In this document: positions 29,073 through 63,950 of the stretch, in pieces
How positions within the stretch are numbered: the stretch's first letter is position 1
Layout: each line of letters opens with the position of its first letter
From: a phage
Reading direction: 5' to 3' (one strand)
DNA: 64,000 nt
NCBI GenBank assembly: GCA_023551395.1
Contig: GCA_023551395.1_3945.1
Position numbers and translations under genes: made by a program
Notes under the pieces: generated by a model
Database searches by the model: none
Seen by the model: the letters and a program-made list of their open reading frames with translations, nothing else
What the model was told of the DNA's origin: nothing

Positions 29073-31217
29073 ATGAACAAAGTACAGATTATTAAAAAGA
29101 ACGGCTCACTTGAAGAACCCGATATCAAAAAAGTTTTAGCAGCAGTAGCTAAGTCAGCTAACAGGGTTGGATATAAAGAACTTCCACCAGATGTTACCCA
29201 AGCTCTTGAGTCAGCATTCATGAGGATTTTGGTAAAGTCCACTAAGCAGAATAATTTGCTTATCTCGGTAAATGATATTCACAGTATTGTTGAAGGTGCT
29301 TTGGCAGAGGTCAATCACGAGATTTATGAGTCTTACTCAACATACAGAAATTACCGTAAAGAGGTTGCTCAAAATTGGGACGAACTCTACCAGAAGACTA
29401 AAGATACACTCTTCTTAGGTGACCGTGAAAATGCTAACTTTGACAGCAGTTTAATTTCTACGAAAGGTTCAATTATCCGTGGTTACCTGACTAAAGAAAT
29501 ATTTAAACAGTATCATCTAACACCAGAGGAACTTGAAGCCATTGAGAAAGGCTTTATCTATATCCACGATTTGAGAGACCTGATTTTTGGTGGTATTAAC
29601 TGTTGCCTGTTTGACATTGGTAAAGTACTAAAAGGTGGCTTTGAAATGTCCGGCATTGAGTACTGTGAACCTAAATCTGTACTGTCAGCGTTGCAGGTTA
29701 TTGGTGACGTAGTACTTTCAGCAACTGCACAGCAATTTGGTGGTTTTACTTTAGCAGAGATTGATAAGGTACTTGTACCGTATGCTAAGAAGTCTCTACG
29801 CTATCATGCTGAGAAAGCATCATCTTATGGTATTCCTAAAGAGCATTACCACAATTATGTAATGGAGCAGCTACAGATTGAACTAACTCAAGGTTTCCAG
29901 TCACTTGAAATGAAACTAAATACCGTACCTTGTAGCCGTGGGGATTTTGCATTTACAACTTTGACATTCGGGTTACTTGACTCAGATATGTCTAATGAAG
30001 ATAACCGACTGCAATATATGATTGCAAGTACTCTCCTAGATGTTCGTATGAATGGACAAGGTAAGAGCAAGAAACCTGTTGTATTCCCTAAACTGGTTTA
30101 TATTTATGACCAGAAGAGACACGATGAGAATATCTGTCAAGGCCAACTGTACAGCAAAGCTATTGAGTGTTGCTCTAAAGCGATGTATCCAGATTTCTTA
30201 AGTGTATCTGGTCATGGTGCTGTAGCAGAAGCTTTTGAGCGTTCTGGCAAGGTAATTTCACCGATGGGTTGCAGAGCTTTCTTATCCCCATATCTTAACG
30301 AGAATGGAGAAGAGTTCTACGTTGGTCGTGCTAATATTGGTGCTGCATCTTTGAACTTACCAATGATTTACCAGTATTCTAAAGAGAATGGTTTAGATTT
30401 CTGGAAAGAGCTTGATAAGTACCTAGAAATGATTCGCAGCTTCCATAAGAAACGTTACGAAATGATTGCCAATATGCCAGCAAGTTCTAACCCTCTTGCA
30501 TTCACACAAGGTGGTCTGTATAAAGGGACTAAGAAGCCTACTGACAAGGTTGGTTGGGATATTGTGAAATCCTTCACAGCTTCTTTTGGGGTTACTGCTC
30601 TTGATGAGTTATCTGTTCTTGCTGAAGGTAAACGACTTCATGAAGTTGGAAGTTCTAGTTTTGCATACGATGTTCTGGCATACATTAACATGAAAACTGA
30701 AGAGTTTAAGAATGAAGATGGCTTCCTGTATGCAGTATATGGCACTCCAGCAGAGTCATTGTGTGGAACTCAGCTAAAACAGTTCAGAGATATGTTTGGT
30801 GTTATTAAAGGCGTTTCTGACAAGGAATACTTTACAAACAGTTTCCATATGAATGTTGCAGCAAACATCTCACCATTTGAGAAGCAGGACTTAGAAGAGC
30901 CATTCTTCCATATCTGTAGAGGTGGCAGAATCCAGTATGTAAGGGTAGCTAACCCAGAAAACTTACCAGCACTTAAAAGTTGTATTACCAGAGGGATGTT
31001 GAAGGGTTTTTATCAGGGACTTAACTTTGACTTAGCAATCTGTGAACATTGTGGTAACAGACCAAAGGCTGATGTTGAAGAATGTGAGGTTTGCCATTCA
31101 CATGATATCTCTGTGATTAACAGGGTGTGCGGATATCTGGGATGGACTAAGATTAAAGGTGAATCCCGAATGAACGATGCAAAAATCGCTGAGATTCGTG
31201 ACAGGATTTCTATGTAA
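29073..31217 (+). CDS. nrdD: anaerobic ribonucleoside-triphosphate reductase (class III)
   Basis: 714 aa; C-terminal glycyl-radical motif RVCGYLG and zinc ribbon CEHCG...CEVCHS. Confidence 0.9.
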   Translation: MNKVQIIKKNGSLEEPDIKKVLAAVAKSANRVGYKELPPDVTQALESAFMRILVKSTKQNNLLISVNDIHSIVEGALAEVNHEIYESYSTYRNYRKEVAQNWDELYQKTKDTLFLGDRENANFDSSLISTKGSIIRGYLTKEIFKQYHLTPEELEAIEKGFIYIHDLRDLIFGGINCCLFDIGKVLKGGFEMSGIEYCEPKSVLSALQVIGDVVLSATAQQFGGFTLAEIDKVLVPYAKKSLRYHAEKASSYGIPKEHYHNYVMEQLQIELTQGFQSLEMKLNTVPCSRGDFAFTTLTFGLLDSDMSNEDNRLQYMIASTLLDVRMNGQGKSKKPVVFPKLVYIYDQKRHDENICQGQLYSKAIECCSKAMYPDFLSVSGHGAVAEAFERSGKVISPMGCRAFLSPYLNENGEEFYVGRANIGAASLNLPMIYQYSKENGLDFWKELDKYLEMIRSFHKKRYEMIANMPASSNPLAFTQGGLYKGTKKPTDKVGWDIVKSFTASFGVTALDELSVLAEGKRLHEVGSSSFAYDVLAYINMKTEEFKNEDGFLYAVYGTPAESLCGTQLKQFRDMFGVIKGVSDKEYFTNSFHMNVAANISPFEKQDLEEPFFHICRGGRIQYVRVANPENLPALKSCITRGMLKGFYQGLNFDLAICEHCGNRPKADVEECEVCHSHDISVINRVCGYLGWTKIKGESRMNDAKIAEIRDRISM

Positions 31218-33213: not shown

Positions 33214-33226
33214 ATAGATACTATAA

Positions 33227-33251
33227 GGGAACTGTAAAGGTTCCCTTTTTA
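33227..33251 (+). terminator. Rho-independent terminator
   Basis: GGGAAC-TGTAAAG-GTTCCC hairpin plus TTTTT. Confidence 0.5.
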
Positions 33252-33264
33252 TTTTGGAGATGAT

Positions 33265-33780
33265 ATGTATCTGTCAAACCTAAAACGTTCTGCTGCAATG
33301 TCAGTGTTAAGACTCAGCTTTGAGGAACGTCAAGAGTTCATTGACTCCCACCAATACGACCCCTCAAACTCCAATCACATGATTCTCTGGAATCGTGAGA
33401 GTACTCGTGAAAGAGCATTATTCCGATATTACCCACACTACACCATAGATAACCTGTATGAATGTTTTGTTGTGAAGAACACCATTACAGTGCTCAATAA
33501 ACTCTGTAGATACACAGGCAGTCAATCCTTCACATTAGGCCATCACAAACCTGTTACAAAGGGTGGTGAGCATCACTGTGCAAACTGGTTTATTCAGACT
33601 AAACTTGATAACCAGAAGCAAGGGGATAACCTTCTAAGCACCCCTAAGATGACCTACGAAGAGCAAGAGAAATATATCAAAAATAATATGCCAGATGTGC
33701 TTGACAACAACTATACAGATTTGGCAATATCTCTCCTGTTGAAGTTCGAGACAGTTTATAGGGCAACTTACAATGGCTAA
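33265..33780 (+). CDS. HNH endonuclease (candidate homing endonuclease)
   Basis: CRYTGSQSFTLGHHKPVTKGGEHHCANW contains the HNH pattern. Confidence 0.5.
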   Translation: MYLSNLKRSAAMSVLRLSFEERQEFIDSHQYDPSNSNHMILWNRESTRERALFRYYPHYTIDNLYECFVVKNTITVLNKLCRYTGSQSFTLGHHKPVTKGGEHHCANWFIQTKLDNQKQGDNLLSTPKMTYEEQEKYIKNNMPDVLDNNYTDLAISLLLKFETVYRATYNG

Positions 33781-34051
33781 AGAAAAGTGGGAGATTTTAC
33801 CATTAGTCAGTGAAGGTGGTAATGGTTGTGAGATGTACATGATACGTGGTCATGTTCCAGAACCAATTGCGCTTGAGATGGTAAACAACTTTACAGATGG
33901 TTCTTACAAAGACTTAGGAGAGCCAACTATAAAGCATCAATGGGTAAAACCTGTACCAGACAGCACAGGTAACTGTAGTGTACTTTACCACGTTGTAGAC
34001 CCTGTAAAATGCAAATCTGCAATGGCAGTAACAAACGTAACCTTTGATTGA
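33773..34051 (+). CDS. hypothetical protein
   Basis: 92 aa ORF. Confidence 0.4.
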   Translation: MAKEKWEILPLVSEGGNGCEMYMIRGHVPEPIALEMVNNFTDGSYKDLGEPTIKHQWVKPVPDSTGNCSVLYHVVDPVKCKSAMAVTNVTFD

Positions 34052-34944
34052 GAGACAAAACTATGAAAACTGTTATTGAAGCCGTCGTCACCGCACAAGA
34101 GAAATTCTTCCACACAGAAAAATTTAATATCATTCAATTCCCATCTGGAGAAATTGGTGGAAACTTCTCTGAAGATTTTGTTAAGTTTACTGAGCGTAAT
34201 GCTGGTAAGATTGATAATGTTATACTTACTGTACAGGGATATGACAAAGATACACTGTTTGCATTGGCTTTGGCTAAGGATGCCGTTGACAGTCTTGTTC
34301 CCCAGAAATCAGCGATGAAAACCGTTGTTTTCGGGTTCTTACCAAATGCTCGATATGACCGCCACATGTTCAAAGGTGATGCAGCAGCACTGAAAGTCTT
34401 TGCCAACCTAGTTAATGCAATGGGCTTTGATGCAGTATGTGCTCTTGACCCTCACAGCAATGTTGCAGAAAACCTATTTAAGTGCTTTCAGAGCATGAAG
34501 CAAAAAGATGTGGCAGTACACTTTGCAAGTGACCCACGCATTGATTTCTTGGTAGCCCCAGATGCAGGTGCAGCTAAGAAGACTGAAGATGCCGCTAAAG
34601 AGGTGGATAAACCATATATCACAATGACTAAGGTGCGAAACCTTAAGACTGGAGAAATCACTGGTATGCGAATCCTTGACGATGTTGATTTAACCGATAA
34701 AACCGTCATGATTCTTGATGATATCTGTGATGGTGGTCGAACTTTCGTAGAGGCAGCTAAACACCTACGTGAAGCAGGTGCAAAACGTGTGGAACTCTAT
34801 GTAACTCATGGTATTTTCTCTAAAGGTGTTGAAAACTTACTTGACAATGGTATTGACCATATCTACACTACAAACACTTTAGGTGAAGCTAAAGACCGTG
34901 GCTTAACACATTATAGTCAAGTTACTGTAGCAACCATTGATTGA
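34048..34944 (+). CDS. ribose-phosphate pyrophosphokinase-like enzyme (Prs family; possibly ADP-ribose pyrophosphokinase)
   Basis: 298 aa; type I PRTase/PRPP-binding loop VMILDDICDGGRT; directly upstream of the NAMPT-like gene. Confidence 0.7.
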   Translation: MRDKTMKTVIEAVVTAQEKFFHTEKFNIIQFPSGEIGGNFSEDFVKFTERNAGKIDNVILTVQGYDKDTLFALALAKDAVDSLVPQKSAMKTVVFGFLPNARYDRHMFKGDAAALKVFANLVNAMGFDAVCALDPHSNVAENLFKCFQSMKQKDVAVHFASDPRIDFLVAPDAGAAKKTEDAAKEVDKPYITMTKVRNLKTGEITGMRILDDVDLTDKTVMILDDICDGGRTFVEAAKHLREAGAKRVELYVTHGIFSKGVENLLDNGIDHIYTTNTLGEAKDRGLTHYSQVTVATID

Positions 34945-34991
34945 AACTTTATAGGGGCTTGAAAGACCCATTTTGAGAGAGAGATTAAAAG

Positions 34992-36773
34992 ATGACTAAA
35001 TCACTTTATGCAGTACCAGCAGGTTTAAACGCGGATGCTTACAAATCTGGCCATGTTTACCAGTACCCTAGTGCAACAGAATACTTGATGTTCAACCTGA
35101 CACCACGTAGTGACAAATGGTTTAACAGCCCCTTAGCAATTGATGGTGTAGTAGCTTTTGGTATTCAACGTTTCGTTAAAGATTACTTGATAGACCACTG
35201 GAACGCCACTTTCTTTGAACGTGATAAAAAAGAAGCCATTGATGAAATCTTAGAAGTCATGAATGGTGTTCTGGGTAAAGATGCTATCGGTCGAGAGCAT
35301 TGGGAAGCACTTCACGACTTAGGCTATCTACCAGTTGAAGTATACGCTGTAGAAGAAGGTACAGTTGTTCCTATGCGTGTCCCAATGATTGTCTTCCAGA
35401 ATACTGTTTCAGGCTTCCATTGGGTAGCGGGATATCTGGAAGATGCTTTCTCTGCTGAGATTTGGAAGGCTTGTACCATTGCAACTATTGCATTGCATTA
35501 TAAACGCATCTGTAAGAAGTGGGCTGACCTTACTTGTGACAATGACTTGCATTTACCTTACCAGTGCCATGACTTTGCTATGCGCGGTATGTCCGGCTTT
35601 ACTGATGACGCATTTAACGCTGTAGGTCACTTAACCAGCTTTAAAGGAACTGATAGTTTCCCTGCTGTTTATACAGCTAAACGTATCTATGGACAGTCCT
35701 ACCCAATCTCTGATATTGGTAGCTCTGTACCAGCCACTGAACACTCTGTAATGTGTGCAAACATTGCTTGGGAAGGCGGTAATGAATTGATTGAAGAAGA
35801 AAGACGCTTTAAAGGTGAGTTACAAACCTTCCGCCGTTTCTTAACAGAAACTTACCCAACTGGTATTGCAAGCATTGTTTCAGATACTTATAACTTCTGG
35901 AGAACTGTGTCAGAAATCTTACCAGCACTCCGCAAAGAAATTATGGAACGTGACGGCAAACTGGTAATTCGTCCTGACTCTGGAGACCCTGTACATATTG
36001 TCACAGGTTATAAAGCAATCCACTTAGAGTGTGCTAAGAAGGCTTATTACGAACACCTAAGCAAGCTGGAAGCCAGCGACACAATGTTGAATGCTGTCCT
36101 GAACATGAAGCTTGAGAACATCAACTATGGTATTGCTGGATGGCTACTGTCAGAAGGCTACGAAATGGTTGTTGACAGAGAAGATTTTGAAGCTGCTGAT
36201 ACGGTGCTATTGAAGAATACTTATATGGTTGGCTCTGCAAACGTTGTAACACGTCCTGTAGCGGAGATTGATGGAGCTATTAAGACACTGTATAACATCT
36301 TTGGAGGAACTATTAACTCTAAGGGTTTTAAGGTACTGGATGAACACATTGGCCTTATTTATGGTGACTCTATCACACTGGAACGTGCAAACGAAATCCT
36401 GAAGCGTCTGTATGAAATGGGTTTTGCAAGCTCTAACGTAGTGTTTGGCGTAGGCTCTTACACTTACCAGTACATGACTCGTGACACCTTTGCATTTGCT
36501 GTTAAAGCAACTCTTGCAAGCATTGGTGGTAAAGAGATTATGCTTGCAAAAGACCCTAAAACAGATAGTGGTGTTAAGAAGTCTGCTTTTGGTGGTGTAG
36601 CACCTATGTGGGATGGTGATAAGTTGAAAGCTGTAGATGGCTATGGATTCCAGAGCTTTGCAGATGTACTTGAACATCCAGCTTGTGCTCTACGTTTAGT
36701 CTTTAGTGACTCTGAGCAGTACGGTTACACATCTCTTGGTGATATTCGAAATAATATTGACAAGCAGCTTTAA
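34992..36773 (+). CDS. nicotinamide phosphoribosyltransferase-like enzyme
   Basis: 593 aa; assigned from overall resemblance to NAMPT-family proteins, no specific motif checked; paired with the Prs-like gene. Confidence 0.7.
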   Translation: MTKSLYAVPAGLNADAYKSGHVYQYPSATEYLMFNLTPRSDKWFNSPLAIDGVVAFGIQRFVKDYLIDHWNATFFERDKKEAIDEILEVMNGVLGKDAIGREHWEALHDLGYLPVEVYAVEEGTVVPMRVPMIVFQNTVSGFHWVAGYLEDAFSAEIWKACTIATIALHYKRICKKWADLTCDNDLHLPYQCHDFAMRGMSGFTDDAFNAVGHLTSFKGTDSFPAVYTAKRIYGQSYPISDIGSSVPATEHSVMCANIAWEGGNELIEEERRFKGELQTFRRFLTETYPTGIASIVSDTYNFWRTVSEILPALRKEIMERDGKLVIRPDSGDPVHIVTGYKAIHLECAKKAYYEHLSKLEASDTMLNAVLNMKLENINYGIAGWLLSEGYEMVVDREDFEAADTVLLKNTYMVGSANVVTRPVAEIDGAIKTLYNIFGGTINSKGFKVLDEHIGLIYGDSITLERANEILKRLYEMGFASSNVVFGVGSYTYQYMTRDTFAFAVKATLASIGGKEIMLAKDPKTDSGVKKSAFGGVAPMWDGDKLKAVDGYGFQSFADVLEHPACALRLVFSDSEQYGYTSLGDIRNNIDKQL

Positions 36774-36788
36774 AAGTATATGATAAGA

Positions 36789-36809
36789 GGCTCCTACGGG
36801 AGCCTTTTT
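36789..36809 (+). terminator. Rho-independent terminator
   Basis: GGCTCC-TACG-GGAGCC hairpin plus TTTTT. Confidence 0.55.
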
Positions 36810-41004: not shown

Positions 41005-41553
41005 ATGAAGAAATTGATTCTAGGTTTGTGCTTAATGTTTACAGCACACTTATCTTATGCAGTTGACTGCCCAGAGCTATCAATTAGCCAAAAAGTAAAC
41101 ATGTTAAAAGCTTACCAGTATGGTGAGAATAACATGGGTAAAGGTTGGGGTATCACTCTAGCTGCTATAGCCTTACAAGAGTCAGAGTTAGGTCTGAAGG
41201 TAGAGAATAAAAAGACACATGATTATGGTATTTTCCAGAATCACTTGAAGACTGTTGTAAAGCGTAACAAAATTAGTCCTAATGTGGCTAAAAAGAAACT
41301 CTTAAGAGACTTTGACTATGCTGCAAAGGAAACGCACAAAGAACTTGAATTTTGGACAAAGGTGCATGGTCAGCCAAAGTCAAAGAAAACTTTACAAAAA
41401 GTTTTAGCATCATATAATGCTGGGTATTCGTACAGAATCCCTAAAGCTAAAAAATATTCTCAAGATGTCTATAACAACATGAAAGTTATCGCTCAATGTG
41501 AATTTGCAACAAACATTTCTAAGGTAAATCATGAAAAAATTAAGAAAGTCTGA
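41005..41553 (+). CDS. lytic transglycosylase (SLT-like) with signal peptide
   Basis: Signal peptide MKKLILGLCLMFTAHLSYA; catalytic-Glu region ALQESELG; AYNAGYS motif. Confidence 0.55.
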   Translation: MKKLILGLCLMFTAHLSYAVDCPELSISQKVNMLKAYQYGENNMGKGWGITLAAIALQESELGLKVENKKTHDYGIFQNHLKTVVKRNKISPNVAKKKLLRDFDYAAKETHKELEFWTKVHGQPKSKKTLQKVLASYNAGYSYRIPKAKKYSQDVYNNMKVIAQCEFATNISKVNHEKIKKV

Positions 41554-42226
41554 TGAAGTACTGTGTCATGCTTATGACTTACATCCTCATGAGTTAGGTC
41601 TTGATTCCTGTGTATGGACTCCAGAACAGTGTAGGGATTTTGAAGACACTGCAAGAGAAGTTGTATGTTCACTTGAAGAGTTTCACACATCAGAGCCAAT
41701 TGTGAATGTTGTAGATAAAGAGACTGGACAAACTATAGGGGTAAGTCGTGATAGTTTAGTCATAGTCAATAAAGACCTTGTAGAAAAAGGTAACCTCATC
41801 TTAGCAGATATTGATGGTGTTCTTACAAATTTTAATCACGAAGATTGCTCAACGGAATTGACTGATGGGTCATTCTCACAGTACACTAATCTTCTTGACT
41901 CTGTAAGAGCAAAACCAACGTATGTTTTTAGTATTATTGATGCAATTGCTAATCATGCTGCCATTGGACTCTTGACAGCGAGAGGTGAATCTCAGAGAAT
42001 ACCTACTGAGATGTTTTTAAGGCATAACATAGAGCATGACTACATGCTTTTTATGCGTGGTTTTGGAACTAACTCTATAAGTGCAGAAAGTTTGAAAGTG
42101 AGGATGATTCAGTCTTGCATCCTGCCTTACTTTAATATAGTATGTTTTATAGAAGACACAGAGAAGAATGTGCAGAAGGTGAACAGAATCCTTCCACACA
42201 TTAAAACCATGTTAGTTAAACATTGA
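41531..42226 (+). CDS. putative 5'(3')-deoxyribonucleotidase-like HAD protein
   Basis: LILADIDGVLTNFN resembles the DxDGVL nucleophile motif, but it lies about 95 aa from the N-terminus, so the call is weak. Confidence 0.35.
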   Translation: MKKLRKSDEVLCHAYDLHPHELGLDSCVWTPEQCRDFEDTAREVVCSLEEFHTSEPIVNVVDKETGQTIGVSRDSLVIVNKDLVEKGNLILADIDGVLTNFNHEDCSTELTDGSFSQYTNLLDSVRAKPTYVFSIIDAIANHAAIGLLTARGESQRIPTEMFLRHNIEHDYMLFMRGFGTNSISAESLKVRMIQSCILPYFNIVCFIEDTEKNVQKVNRILPHIKTMLVKH

Positions 42227-44254: not shown

Positions 44255-45040
44255 ATGGGTATTGTAAAAATCATCAATGGCGATATCTTTGCAGCATTTG
44301 ATAAAGGTAAGTTTGACATCATTGGTCACGGTTGCAACTGTATGAATTTAATGGGTGCAGGTATCGCTGACAAGATTTCTAAACTTTACCCAAAAGCATA
44401 TGAGACCGATACAGAAGTTTACCTCTATGCAGGTGGTATAGTTCACAAACCCTGTGAAAATCTACTGGGTAATTTCTCTGTAGCACGTTTAGAACAAGGC
44501 CGTATAGCTAACCTTTACACTCAGCTTAAGACTGGTAAAGATGCCCGATACAGTGCTTTAGAGTCATCTTTGAAACAACTTAACAGATACTGTGAAGTCA
44601 ATCAGTTGAAGAAAGTTGGGTTACCTATGATTGGTGCAGGTATCGGTGGACTAGACCCTCAAGCCGTCACAGTTATCATTAATCAGGTGATGAAGAGTGT
44701 AGATGTGTATCTTTATGTCTACGAAGGAGAGATGTACCACAAGTTACGCTCAGGTTGGAAGAACTACTGTGAACCAGAATACTTTGCAGGTGTAGCAGTG
44801 TTCACAGATAACGCAGTTACCCTCTTCAGACGAAGAAAAGGTAAGATACATCAAAGTAACCCTCCGGTTGAAAAGATGTCTCTAAGTAACGCTCTAGTTA
44901 CCCACCTGTCGAAGAGCAATCACAGGATTGCAGTAACATTTGGCAGTGATGCAGATACTTATATCTATGCAAGAACTGATGAGGATATCGAGACAGTTTT
45001 CTCTTCACCAGAAGTTACCTTCTTAGACGCAAAGAACTAA
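44255..45040 (+). CDS. macro-domain (ADP-ribose-binding/processing) protein
   Basis: N-terminal IINGDIF...IIGHGCNCMNLMGAGIADKI and later GLPMIGAGIGGLDP match the macro-domain glycine-rich loops. Confidence 0.5.
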   Translation: MGIVKIINGDIFAAFDKGKFDIIGHGCNCMNLMGAGIADKISKLYPKAYETDTEVYLYAGGIVHKPCENLLGNFSVARLEQGRIANLYTQLKTGKDARYSALESSLKQLNRYCEVNQLKKVGLPMIGAGIGGLDPQAVTVIINQVMKSVDVYLYVYEGEMYHKLRSGWKNYCEPEYFAGVAVFTDNAVTLFRRRKGKIHQSNPPVEKMSLSNALVTHLSKSNHRIAVTFGSDADTYIYARTDEDIETVFSSPEVTFLDAKN

Positions 45041-51619: not shown

Positions 51620-53180
51620 TCTATTGAATCATTATACAATCCCTTTCCCTCACCTTTCCAGAATCTTATCAGACCTTAAAAGCAATAACTCTATAGTCTA
51701 CTCTATAACCTTTTATCAAATCAACTTAAATAAAAGCCAATAACCCCAGAAAGGGGATGGCCCATTTAAACGCTCTATAAAGCTCTATAACAGCCTTATC
51801 AACCTAACTTAAGGGATTGCATTAACCAACCTTAAAAAGCTCTTTACAGGGCTTTATAGAGGCTTAAAAGAATCTTATAAGGTTATAAGCTTTATTATCT
51901 CGTTAGCTATCTTGTGAACTACTAAAAAGGGCTTGTTATTGTCTTAAAAGTATGTTATATGGGCTTTAAAGTTACTTTGAAGTAGCTTAAAAGTTACGTA
52001 AATGCTAGCCCCCTTAACATTTTCTTAACAATTTCTTAACAAACCCTACATAGTTATGCTTTTAAGGCACTTGTTAGCAACTTGTTAGTCCCTTGTTAAA
52101 TCTCTGTTAAGACCACGTAAAAGCCTTGTAAGAGTCTTTGACATAGCCTTTAAAGCCCCTGTAAAGCCCTATAAAGAGGTATCTGTACAGTTGGGGGGTA
52201 GATACTAGGAAGAGACTTAAAAGAGCTTACAAGGAGCTATAGAGAGCTTTTAAGAGGTATGTTTAAAGAATCACTAAGAAAGGAAAGGGAACGATAAGAA
52301 AAGAGATAGTGACCATGTTAATAGCTTGTTAAAAAGATTAAACACTTGTTAGAGACTTGTTAATTATCTTAACAAAATAACTCTTAAAAATTAACTTGTT
52401 AGCTCTTGTTAGCCATCTGTTAAGACTCTGTAAAGCCTATGTATCAACTGTTAAGAAACTGTTACGCTCTTGTTAGTTCTGTTGAGAATCTGTTAAGACC
52501 TTTGAAGAGATGTTAAGGAGATGTGAGAACTGTTAAGAGATTGTTAAGGATATTTTAAAATTTTGCAAAGTACTTGTAAGGGAGCTGTTAAGGGCTACCA
52601 AGCAGATATACATCTTCTACAGATATTTTTCAGTTCCTTCAAAGACCCTAAAAAATGACTTGATAGTCCTATTTTATAAAAATTTTAAAAATCTGAATAA
52701 TTACCTATACAGTCTTTCTAAAATACAGGTAATAACAGGCTTATAAGATACCTTGTTAGTACCGTGTTAGACCTTGTGAGATAAGGTCTGTAAAGATATT
52801 CCTGTTAAGTTTGTTAAAACAGTCTATATAGAGGCTTAGTAATACCTAGTGAACACCTATAGAGAGTGTCATAGCTAACCTAGAGATTAAGAGGTGTATA
52901 GGAGCTTCTAAGAGGGTATAGAAAGATGGTTAAGGTGATTGTATAGGTTGTTAAGAAGGCTTGTTAGAGGGCTTGTTAGAAGGGTTATACAGAGGGCTAT
53001 TAAGACCACTAGATAGATACTAAGATACTATATAGTACTATATAACTATATATAGAGAGTAAGCTTAAGAAGGTTGTTAAGAAGGGTAGATATTTTGTTC
53101 ACATATGATGGTGACCCAGAGGTTGGGACAACCGATAAAAATTTTATAAAAATTAAAAAGCCCCCAATTAAGGAGGCTCT
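51620..53180. repeat. 1.5 kb ORF-free region with dense short direct repeats
   Basis: More than 25 copies of (C)TTGTTAG / CTGTTAAGA / TGTTAAG at 9-12 bp spacing (densest 52040-52120, 52320-52560, 52740-52800, 52920-52990), plus repeated CTATAAAG/CTTTATAGA motifs; lies between convergent gene blocks. Confidence 0.7.
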
Positions 53181-53189
53181 TAAGATATT

Positions 53190-53813
53190 TTAAATCAGTG
53201 TTTCCAGAACTGTTTTTAATGATGACTTGGTTGTCTGATAAAAATGAGTAAAGCCATTGTTGTTATCAAATACCTGCATCATGATATCATCTCCCTTGAT
53301 TGGGTACACTCGGATATCATAGTGAAAACCATTAAAGACACAAGAGCCATTACAGAATGCACTAAAGTCATCAACTGAGATATACTCTTCATGTCCTGTG
53401 ATTTTTATACAAACACCTTTACTCGGTCTCTTAGGGTTGATATCTTCCATCACAGACATACTCTGTCCACCAAGAGATACCATAGTGACCACTTTACGGT
53501 TCTTCTGTCTAAAGTACATTTTAACTTTCTGCAAAGTGTCTTCATAGAACGGATAAGACCTTTCTACAAAGATTCCTTCAAGTGGCTCTTTACCATTTTC
53601 AACTTCTCTGTTATGCCGTACTGCAAAGATAATTTGTTCGAACCAGTCAAGATTTTCTTCGGAGAGTGCTTCCCGAACATCCTTCCAGTCAAGTACTAAG
53701 TAGTTACCTTCAACTTCTTTTAAGTTATCTTTTTCCATATCTATCACACCATTATCGTAAAACTTGATATTCTGGTACTGCGAATTTATTACTATTGTTC
53801 TTGATGAGGTCAT
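53190..53813 (-). CDS. hypothetical protein
   Basis: 207 aa; start may be the internal Met near 53738. Confidence 0.45.
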   Translation of the reverse strand: MTSSRTIVINSQYQNIKFYDNGVIDMEKDNLKEVEGNYLVLDWKDVREALSEENLDWFEQIIFAVRHNREVENGKEPLEGIFVERSYPFYEDTLQKVKMYFRQKNRKVVTMVSLGGQSMSVMEDINPKRPSKGVCIKITGHEEYISVDDFSAFCNGSCVFNGFHYDIRVYPIKGDDIMMQVFDNNNGFTHFYQTTKSSLKTVLETLI

Positions 53814-63620: not shown

Positions 63621-63697
63621 CTCTGTTTAGCTCAGCTTGGTAGAGCGTTCCGTTTGGGGCGGTAAGGCCGGAGGTTCAAGTCCTCCAACAGAGACCA
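63621..63697 (+). tRNA. tRNA-Pro (anticodon UGG)
   Basis: Hand-folded cloverleaf: 7 bp acceptor CTCTGTT/AACAGAG, D-arm GCTCAGCTTGGTAGAGC, anticodon loop TTTGGGG, T-arm GGAGGTTCAAGTCCTCC, encoded CCA. One U-U mismatch in anticodon stem. Confidence 0.65.
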
Positions 63698-63704
63698 AAT
63701 TAAT

Positions 63705-63782
63705 GTTCCAGTAGACAAAACGGTAAAGTCACCACTCTTTCAAAGTGGATATTTGAGGGTTCAAATCCCTTCTGGAACGCCA
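63705..63782 (+). tRNA. tRNA-Glu (anticodon UUC)
   Basis: Acceptor GTTCCAG/CTGGAAC, perfect anticodon stem CCACT/AGTGG with loop CTTTCAA, T-loop TTCAAAT, encoded CCA. Confidence 0.6.
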
Positions 63783-63873
63783 GTTTTGACAGAAGACCAA
63801 TTACAGCAAACTTAATCTTATTCATCTGAAGGTAAATCGGACAAAGAAGAGATTTGGTCTGGTCATTAAGAAT

Positions 63874-63950
63874 TGCGGGTATAGAGAAAGGGCGTCTCAC
63901 ATGTCTCATTAGCATGGTATCGGCAGGTTCGACTCCTGCACCCGCCTCCA
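63874..63950 (+). tRNA. tRNA with CAU anticodon (Met or Ile2)
   Basis: T-arm GCAGGTTCGACTCCTGC, anticodon stem CATGT/GCATG with loop CTCATTA, encoded CCA; unpaired 1-72 position and one extra nt before the D-stem. Confidence 0.45.

Follow-up and report, generated by a model that had tools for sequence, protein, structure and literature searches.

The adps-namat locus

Here we describe the gene structure, the orthology and the conservation of catalytic and substrate-clamp residues of two adjacent genes, adps and namat, on a phage contig (GenBank assembly GCA_023551395.1, contig GCA_023551395.1_3945.1). The analysed stretch of 64,000 nucleotides is called the window, and all positions refer to it. 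The first gene (34063..34944, plus strand) encodes a protein of 293 amino acids (aa) that resembles ribose-phosphate pyrophosphokinase (Prs) and is predicted to be an ADP-ribose pyrophosphokinase (Adps; PHROG 619, E 3e-99). The second gene (34992..36773, plus strand) encodes a protein of 593 aa that resembles nicotinamide phosphoribosyltransferase (NAMPT) and is predicted to be a nicotinamide ADP-ribose transferase (Namat; PHROG 448, E 2e-202). That a Prs-like gene lies directly upstream of a NAMPT-like gene had been noted in an earlier, sequence-only reading of this DNA, and both are indeed real, long open reading frames (ORFs) on the plus strand. They are only 47 nt apart, i.e., well inside the limit by which Osterman et al. 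recognised NAD+ reconstitution pathway 1 (NARP1), namely Prs-family and Nampt-family genes within 10 genes of each other (Osterman et al., bioRxiv 10.1101/2024.02.11.579819; Nature 2024;634:1160). We put the probability that the pair is the NARP1 operon of a Felixounavirus phage at about 95%.

The span first proposed for the pair, 34048 to 36773, is correct at its downstream end and was revised at its upstream end. The adps gene is best placed at 34063..34944 because the ATG at 34063 has a Shine-Dalgarno-like site (GAGAG) upstream of it at the right spacing, and relatives are annotated with this start. The TTG at 34048, which has no such site upstream, was rejected as the start. The namat start at 34992 is preceded by GAGAGAGAG.

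Orthology to the NARP1 operon of phage Bas63

The window phage is of the Felixounavirus type and shares ~94-96% nucleotide identity with many phages of E. coli and Salmonella. The 2.7-kb region of the pair matches 256 phage records, mostly of Escherichia, Salmonella and Shigella phages, with a top identity of 96%, and the pair is kept across these records; over the 22-kb stretch surrounding it, identity to the best records is ~94%. One of these records belongs to Escherichia phage JohannRWettstein (= Bas63), whose genes 79-80 are the operon with which NARP1 was discovered (Osterman et al., bioRxiv 10.1101/2024.02.11.579819; Nature 2024;634:1160). The operon DNA of the window and of Bas63 is ~95% identical, and both proteins align with their Bas63 counterparts without gaps and over their full length, Adps with 288 of 293 residues identical to Bas63_0079 (98%) and Namat with 583 of 593 identical to Bas63_0080 (98%). 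The pair is orthologous to an experimentally characterised NARP1 operon.

Both phages have the same genus-level backbone and gene order, with NrdG upstream of the pair and rIIA/rIIB downstream. Bas63 differs in an extra small gene (0081) after namat, which is missing from the window, and in an nrdD intron that carries a homing endonuclease. The window nrdD gene (anaerobic ribonucleotide reductase, 29073-31217) is one uninterrupted ORF of 714 aa, whereas the Bas63 gene is annotated as two joined pieces around a homing-endonuclease gene (bas63_0067/0068).

Deletion of genes 79-80 from Bas63 led to ~20-fold fewer plaques on cells with the SIR2-HerA defence system and abolished NAD+ restoration, and the counter-defence was independent of the host genes pncC and nadR (Osterman et al., bioRxiv 10.1101/2024.02.11.579819; Nature 2024;634:1160). 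In untargeted metabolomics, ADP-ribose pyrophosphate (ADPR-PP, m/z 720.010) was present only when wild-type Bas63 and the defence system came together (Osterman et al., Nature 2024;634:1160). Enzymology was done on homologs from Bacillus phage SpβL1 because the Bas63 protein purified poorly. SpβL1 Adps used ADP-ribose and ATP, with no detected phosphoribosyl pyrophosphate (PRPP) synthetase activity, and SpβL1 Namat formed NAD+ from ADPR-PP and nicotinamide and preferred ADPR-PP over PRPP (Osterman et al., Nature 2024;634:1160). We infer that the window proteins share the activities of the Bas63 and SpβL1 enzymes.

If so, the pair would act against the many bacterial defences, such as SIR2-HerA/Nezha, type I Thoeris, DSR1/2 and SEFIR, which cleave NAD+ to ADP-ribose and nicotinamide. 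Adps would use ATP to pyrophosphorylate ADP-ribose at its 1'' position and thereby form ADPR-PP, and Namat would replace the pyrophosphate with nicotinamide to yield NAD+ directly. Such a route would need neither nicotinamide mononucleotide (NMN) as an intermediate nor an NMN adenylyltransferase (NMNAT).

The chief alternative is ordinary salvage, in which a genuine PRPP synthetase converts ribose-5-phosphate to PRPP, a genuine NAMPT (NadV) makes NMN, and the host enzymes NadR/NadD complete NAD+. The Bas63 findings speak strongly against it. The counter-defence of an operon that is 98% identical at the protein level proceeds without host pncC and nadR, which therefore rules out the NMN route. 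In addition, ADPR-PP accumulated in vivo with Bas63, and a homologous Adps showed no PRPP-synthetase activity.

The substrate clamp of Namat and its catalytic core

Namat recognises the adenine of ADPR-PP by a selectivity clamp with two parts, a helix (SCH) and a variable loop (SCL) that provides a further stacking residue (PMC12774641). The SCH follows the pattern GS-X-Φ-X-Φ-X-Φ-TRD, in which positions 3 and 7 are aromatic, and the SCL has either an Arg at its third position or a Lys/Tyr followed by the stacking residue; Bas63 Namat exemplifies the Lys type, with Lys followed by an aromatic residue (PMC12774641). Both parts are present in the window Namat. Its SCH is GSYTYQYMTRD (aa 488-498; 36453..36485, plus strand), which conforms to the motif definition with aromatic Y490 and Y494 and has Met as Φ3 instead of the usual Asn/Val; the motif is also conserved in the Namats of phages IW18 and EM. 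The SCL is S40-D41-K42-W43-F44 (35109..35123, plus strand), with Lys in third and an aromatic, stacking residue in fourth position, as in the Bas63-type arrangement. SCH and SCL residues are identical between the window and Bas63 Namats.

We mapped further residues by a HMMER alignment of the window Namat to the SpβL1 Namat structure 9W5X, with residue numbering as in the structural study published in 2026 (PMC12774641; PDB 9W5X, 9W5W). SpβL1 D13/Y15 correspond to D15/Y17 in the window protein, F189/R192 to F195/R198, D215 to D221, A242 to A248, R306/D308 to R327/D329, and G360-D361 to G458-D459; within the SCH, G390-S391-F392 correspond to G488-S489-Y490, Y396 to Y494, and T398-R399-D400 to T496-R497-D498. 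The Nampt-type catalytic core is thus intact (D15, Y17, F195, R198, D221, R327, D329, H251), including His251 in PATEHSV (35742..35744, plus strand), which is the catalytic (phospho-)histidine conserved in the Nampt/Namat core. Every residue that contacts NAD+ in 9W5W is conserved or conservatively replaced. The SpβL1 structures 9W5W/9W5X are also the best PDB matches of the window Namat (E 5e-128), and human NAMPT matches it at E ~1e-40.

The SpβL1 system is likewise a two-gene Adps-Namat operon with the SCH motif. Its Namat is shorter (~490 aa), whereas the window protein has an insertion of ~85 aa and a longer C-terminus; stacking relies on Arg40 in SpβL1 versus Lys-Trp in the SCL of the window protein, and further changes are S190 to A196, A362 to S460 and F392 to Y490. 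The insertion spans aa ~344-427 (36021-36272). Approximately 55 aa of it are common to the Namats of Thalassavirus and Pakpunavirus, and ~25 aa (AADTVLLKNTYMVGSANVVTRPV) occur only in the Felixounavirus type. Most of the residues that differ between the window and Bas63 Namats lie close together in this insertion.

Presence of the Namat-specific adenine clamp is a further argument against ordinary salvage. Compared with cellular Prs and NadV/NAMPT, the pair has the same folds and the same catalytic chemistry, whereas its substrates would be shifted to ADP-ribose and ADPR-PP, with an adenine clamp added to the NAMPT fold.

Adps compared with PRPP synthetases

Adps carries the catalytic features expected of the Prs fold. 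The flexible-loop Lys/Arg of PRPP synthetases lie in T-K190-V-R192 (34627..34638, plus strand), which aligns with HKER of the human and EKER of the S. solfataricus enzyme. By this alignment, K190 would be equivalent to K197 of B. subtilis Prs and K162 of SpβL1 Adps, the matching lysines that were mutated in the two proteins (Osterman et al., bioRxiv 10.1101/2024.02.11.579819; Nature 2024;634:1160). The phosphate-binding loop of phosphoribosyltransferase type, DDICDGG, was already spotted in the sequence-only reading and is found at aa 219-225 (34717..34737, plus strand); DDI.DGG is invariant in the NARP1 Adps of Thalassavirus and Pakpunavirus.

Database labels point to ordinary salvage. Pfam, PHROG and NCBIfam place the pair, with very strong scores, in the PRPP-synthetase and NAMPT/nicotinate phosphoribosyltransferase (NAPRTase) families and still name NARP1 genes accordingly, as does the GenBank annotation of all relatives. 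Adps also exceeds the cut-off of the NCBIfam subfamily model TIGR01251 (139.7 vs 113 bits), and Namat that of the equivalog model NF006629, 'nicotinate phosphoribosyltransferase', which we regard as a mislabel. However, TIGR01251 is a broad model and the only one that Adps passes. All Prs equivalog models in NCBIfam remain far under their cut-offs, the best being NF002095 with 113.5 bits vs a cut-off of 296, and no match to Pribosyltran_N was detected in Adps at E<=0.01 in Pfam. Adps thus has neither of the two marks of canonical Prs, i.e., an equivalog match and a Pribosyltran_N domain. Its best PDB matches are ordinary Prs enzymes (4TWB, E 1.5e-18), with no Adps structure among the matches. 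Weighing both sides, we consider ordinary salvage very improbable. In a separate case of labelling, the Adps of Pseudomonas phage EM (L005 3150-4007), which is 41% identical to the window Adps, was deposited as a 'baseplate protein'.

The sequence-only reading had proposed the phage pathway of an ADP-ribose pyrophosphokinase and a nicotinamide ADP-ribose transferase, which the 98%/98% identity to Bas63 79-80 and the Namat clamp support, and had suggested a comparison with characterised Adps/Namat and Prs proteins. This comparison falls on the NARP1 side by way of identity, clamp and failed Prs equivalogs. The same reading was wrong in holding that sequence alone cannot separate NARP1 from ordinary salvage. 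The two are separated because the pair is orthologous to the characterised Bas63 operon, Namat carries the SCH/SCL signature, and Adps fails the Prs equivalogs and shows no Pribosyltran_N match.

Search for an NMN adenylyltransferase

A second alternative is a NARP2-like pathway as in Vibrio phage KVP40, which would pair a Nampt with a phage NMNAT encoded elsewhere in the genome. It is compatible with the second gene being a Nampt homolog, and ~23 kb of the phage genome lie outside the window. NARP2 of KVP40 (Nampt plus Nmnat/Nudix) also has an enzyme of the Nampt family and acts against NAD+ depletion, but it uses PRPP and needs an NMNAT, whereas the window pair has an Adps partner and the Namat clamp. 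We scanned the 95 other ORFs of the window against Pfam in three batches, each of which gave a complete list of <25 families, and found no NMNAT (CTP_transf_like), Nudix or NadR family, in agreement with the earlier remark that no NMNAT is visible in the window. The part of the Bas63 genome that corresponds to the outside of the window contains structural genes, tRNAs and a few hypotheticals, the two larger of which are DUF7338 and DUF7217, and no NMNAT, Nudix or NadR is annotated there. Moreover, no phage was found to have both NARP1 and NARP2, and the Nampts of NARP2, which have no Adps partner, group in a clade of their own (Osterman et al., bioRxiv 10.1101/2024.02.11.579819; Nature 2024;634:1160). 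We therefore give a NARP2-like pathway next to no credence.

Some points weigh against the assignment to NARP1. The pair is not identical to that of Bas63: Adps has 5 and Namat 10 substituted residues, of which none is a catalytic or clamp residue listed above. For Bas63, too, the in vitro evidence comes from the SpβL1 homologs (Osterman et al., Nature 2024;634:1160). Absence of an NMNAT from the ~23 kb outside the window relies on the Bas63 annotation. Namat furthermore retains some NMN formation from PRPP in vitro (PMC12774641), and the window Namat may make a minor Nampt-like contribution.

By every feature that can be tested in sequence, the pair is NARP1 and is not a canonical Prs system, NARP2 or an operon-type NARP1-AP, the macro-domain variant treated below. 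It is already known, because it is one more, near-identical Felixounavirus copy of the founding NARP1 example. The copy is no new discovery. It does illustrate that NARP1 is recognisable from sequence, by near-identity with the Bas63 operon as well as by the clamp motif of Namat, and the only lead of some value is a distal macro-domain protein.

A distal macro-domain protein

The macro-domain gene that the sequence-only reading had pointed out 7.5 kb downstream of the pair (44255..45040, plus strand) encodes a protein of 261 aa. The macro domain is confirmed (PHROG 335); it is of the Poa1p/TARG1/DarG class, covers aa 1-157 and is followed by a C-terminal beta-rich domain of ~100 aa with no recognisable fold. 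The gene is the ortholog of bas63_0095, which is annotated as 'putative phosphatase'.

A link to NARP1 is suggested by recent work on aRES, a RES-domain defence that cleaves NAD+ to nicotinamide and ADPR-1''-phosphate, the latter not usable by Adps (Osterman et al., 2026 preprint, bioRxiv 10.64898/2026.01.28.702374). Some phages have NARP1-AP, i.e., NARP1 with a Poa1p-like macro-domain phosphatase, Adpp, inside the operon; a survey that covered two genes on either side detected it in 15% of NARP1 phages (bioRxiv 10.64898/2026.01.28.702374). The preprint does not mention Bas63 (bioRxiv 10.64898/2026.01.28.702374). The window genome encodes Adps, Namat and a PHROG-335 macro protein as does Vibrio phage Gary, but in the window the macro gene lies outside the operon, 7.5 kb and 13 ORFs downstream of namat and past terminator-like sites at 36785, 40918 and 42713. 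It is neither inside the operon nor within two genes of it, and the survey would have missed a gene at this distance because it covered only two genes on either side.

Could the macro protein nevertheless serve NARP1 as an Adpp-like ADPR-1''-phosphate phosphatase? Its N-terminal 157 aa fall into PHROG 335, like the macro protein in the Adps-macro-Namat operon of Vibrio phage IW18, which is 94.9% identical to the validated Adpp of Gary. The window protein is 28% identical to IW18 gp176 (E 2e-14) and differs from the Gary-type Adpp also by its extra ~100-aa domain; common to the window protein and IW18 gp176 are the motifs HxCNC, N(L/V)Y(T/G)Q and PxIG(A/C)G. The catalytic His23 and Asn26 of Poa1p align with H25 and N28, in keeping with homology to Adpp/Poa1p, and Poa1p Ser30 and Gly33 are conserved neither in the window protein nor in the Adpp-type protein. 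Homologs at 31-37% identity adjoin NARP1 or sit inside it in Pakpunavirus, Thalassavirus and three IMG/VR loci (L077, L079, L081), in a further locus (L072) an adps-namat pair lies 3.6 kb from the macro gene, and in all Felixounavirus-like IMG/VR loci with enough upstream flank NARP1 is found ~7.5 kb upstream of it.

Outside the Ounavirinae, however, only 4-5 of 49 IMG/VR loci have NARP1 within 10 kb of the macro gene (L072, L077/L079, L081 and partly L045), and the macro family occurs in 2849 phage records, including T4-like phages, vs 1570 with an Adps homolog. Genomic linkage of the macro family to NARP1 is weak and leaves its function unsettled. We also looked for an Adpp-specific clade that would hold the macro domain, but the neighbour-joining tree of 59 homologs was star-like, with the Ounavirinae on their own branch, and therefore uninformative.

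An Adpp-like role in the service of NARP1 is therefore plausible but not settled, because the links by PHROG, motifs and loci stand against the width of the family, the sparse linkage, the star-like tree and the distance. Tentatively, and with clearly less than even odds, we propose that Felixounaviruses including Bas63 run a dispersed NARP1-AP, in which an unlinked Adpp would convert ADPR-1''-phosphate, the product of RES-type phosphorolysis of NAD+, to ADP-ribose for Adps, and the Ounavirinae-specific C-terminal domain might add, e.g., regulation or targeting. The macro protein may instead be unrelated to NARP1; it might strip ADP-ribose from DNA or protein in the manner of DarG/TARG1, or else clear other ADP-ribose derivatives, as in phages that have the macro family while no NARP1 gene lies within 10 kb. 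We consider this rather more probable than not, despite the membership in the PHROG of the validated Adpp type, the conserved H25 and N28, the loss of Ser30/Gly33 also from the Adpp-type protein, the homologs next to or inside NARP1, and the constant position in Felixounavirus-like loci. Should the macro protein turn out to act as Adpp, NARP1-AP would be commoner among NARP1 phages than the estimated 15%, and phages like Bas63 would be expected to resist aRES.

Transcription unit and other features of the window

Upstream of the pair lie two small ORFs of 171 aa (33265..33780, plus strand) and 92 aa (33773..34051, plus strand), orthologs of bas63_0077/0078. Their products belong to PHROG 3500 and 4726, both families of unknown function, and match no Pfam family in our scan; that of the 171-aa ORF has a weak match to HNH endonucleases (E 2e-4). 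The small ORFs are preceded by a terminator-like hairpin with a 9-bp stem and T-run (33225..33247, plus strand), and a strong, intrinsic-terminator-like hairpin with a 10-bp GC-rich stem and T-run (36785..36808, plus strand) starts 12 nt past the namat stop. The transcription unit therefore probably extends between these hairpins and comprises the two small ORFs followed by adps-namat, with which they are possibly co-transcribed.

Between NARP1 and the macro gene, a protein of 231 aa (41531-42226) is labelled 'polynucleotide kinase' in Bas63 and PHROG 3970 but matches no Pfam family at E<=0.05; it may be a kinase or a phosphatase. When the window was scanned with Rfam, tRNAs were the only matches; a tRNA cluster (tRNA-Pro, Glu, Met) begins at 63621-63950 and runs past the window as in Bas63. 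A region of ~1.5 kb (51650-53190) contains no ORF >=45 aa, no tRNA and no Rfam match and is unannotated in Bas63 too (70,492-72,155). It sits between convergent gene blocks at the peak of cumulative GC skew and is densely filled with degenerate CTTGTTA(A/G) / TGTTAAG repeats, spaced by 11-12 nt and in both orientations. They could form an array of iteron-like elements or protein-binding sites, as at an origin or a terminus.

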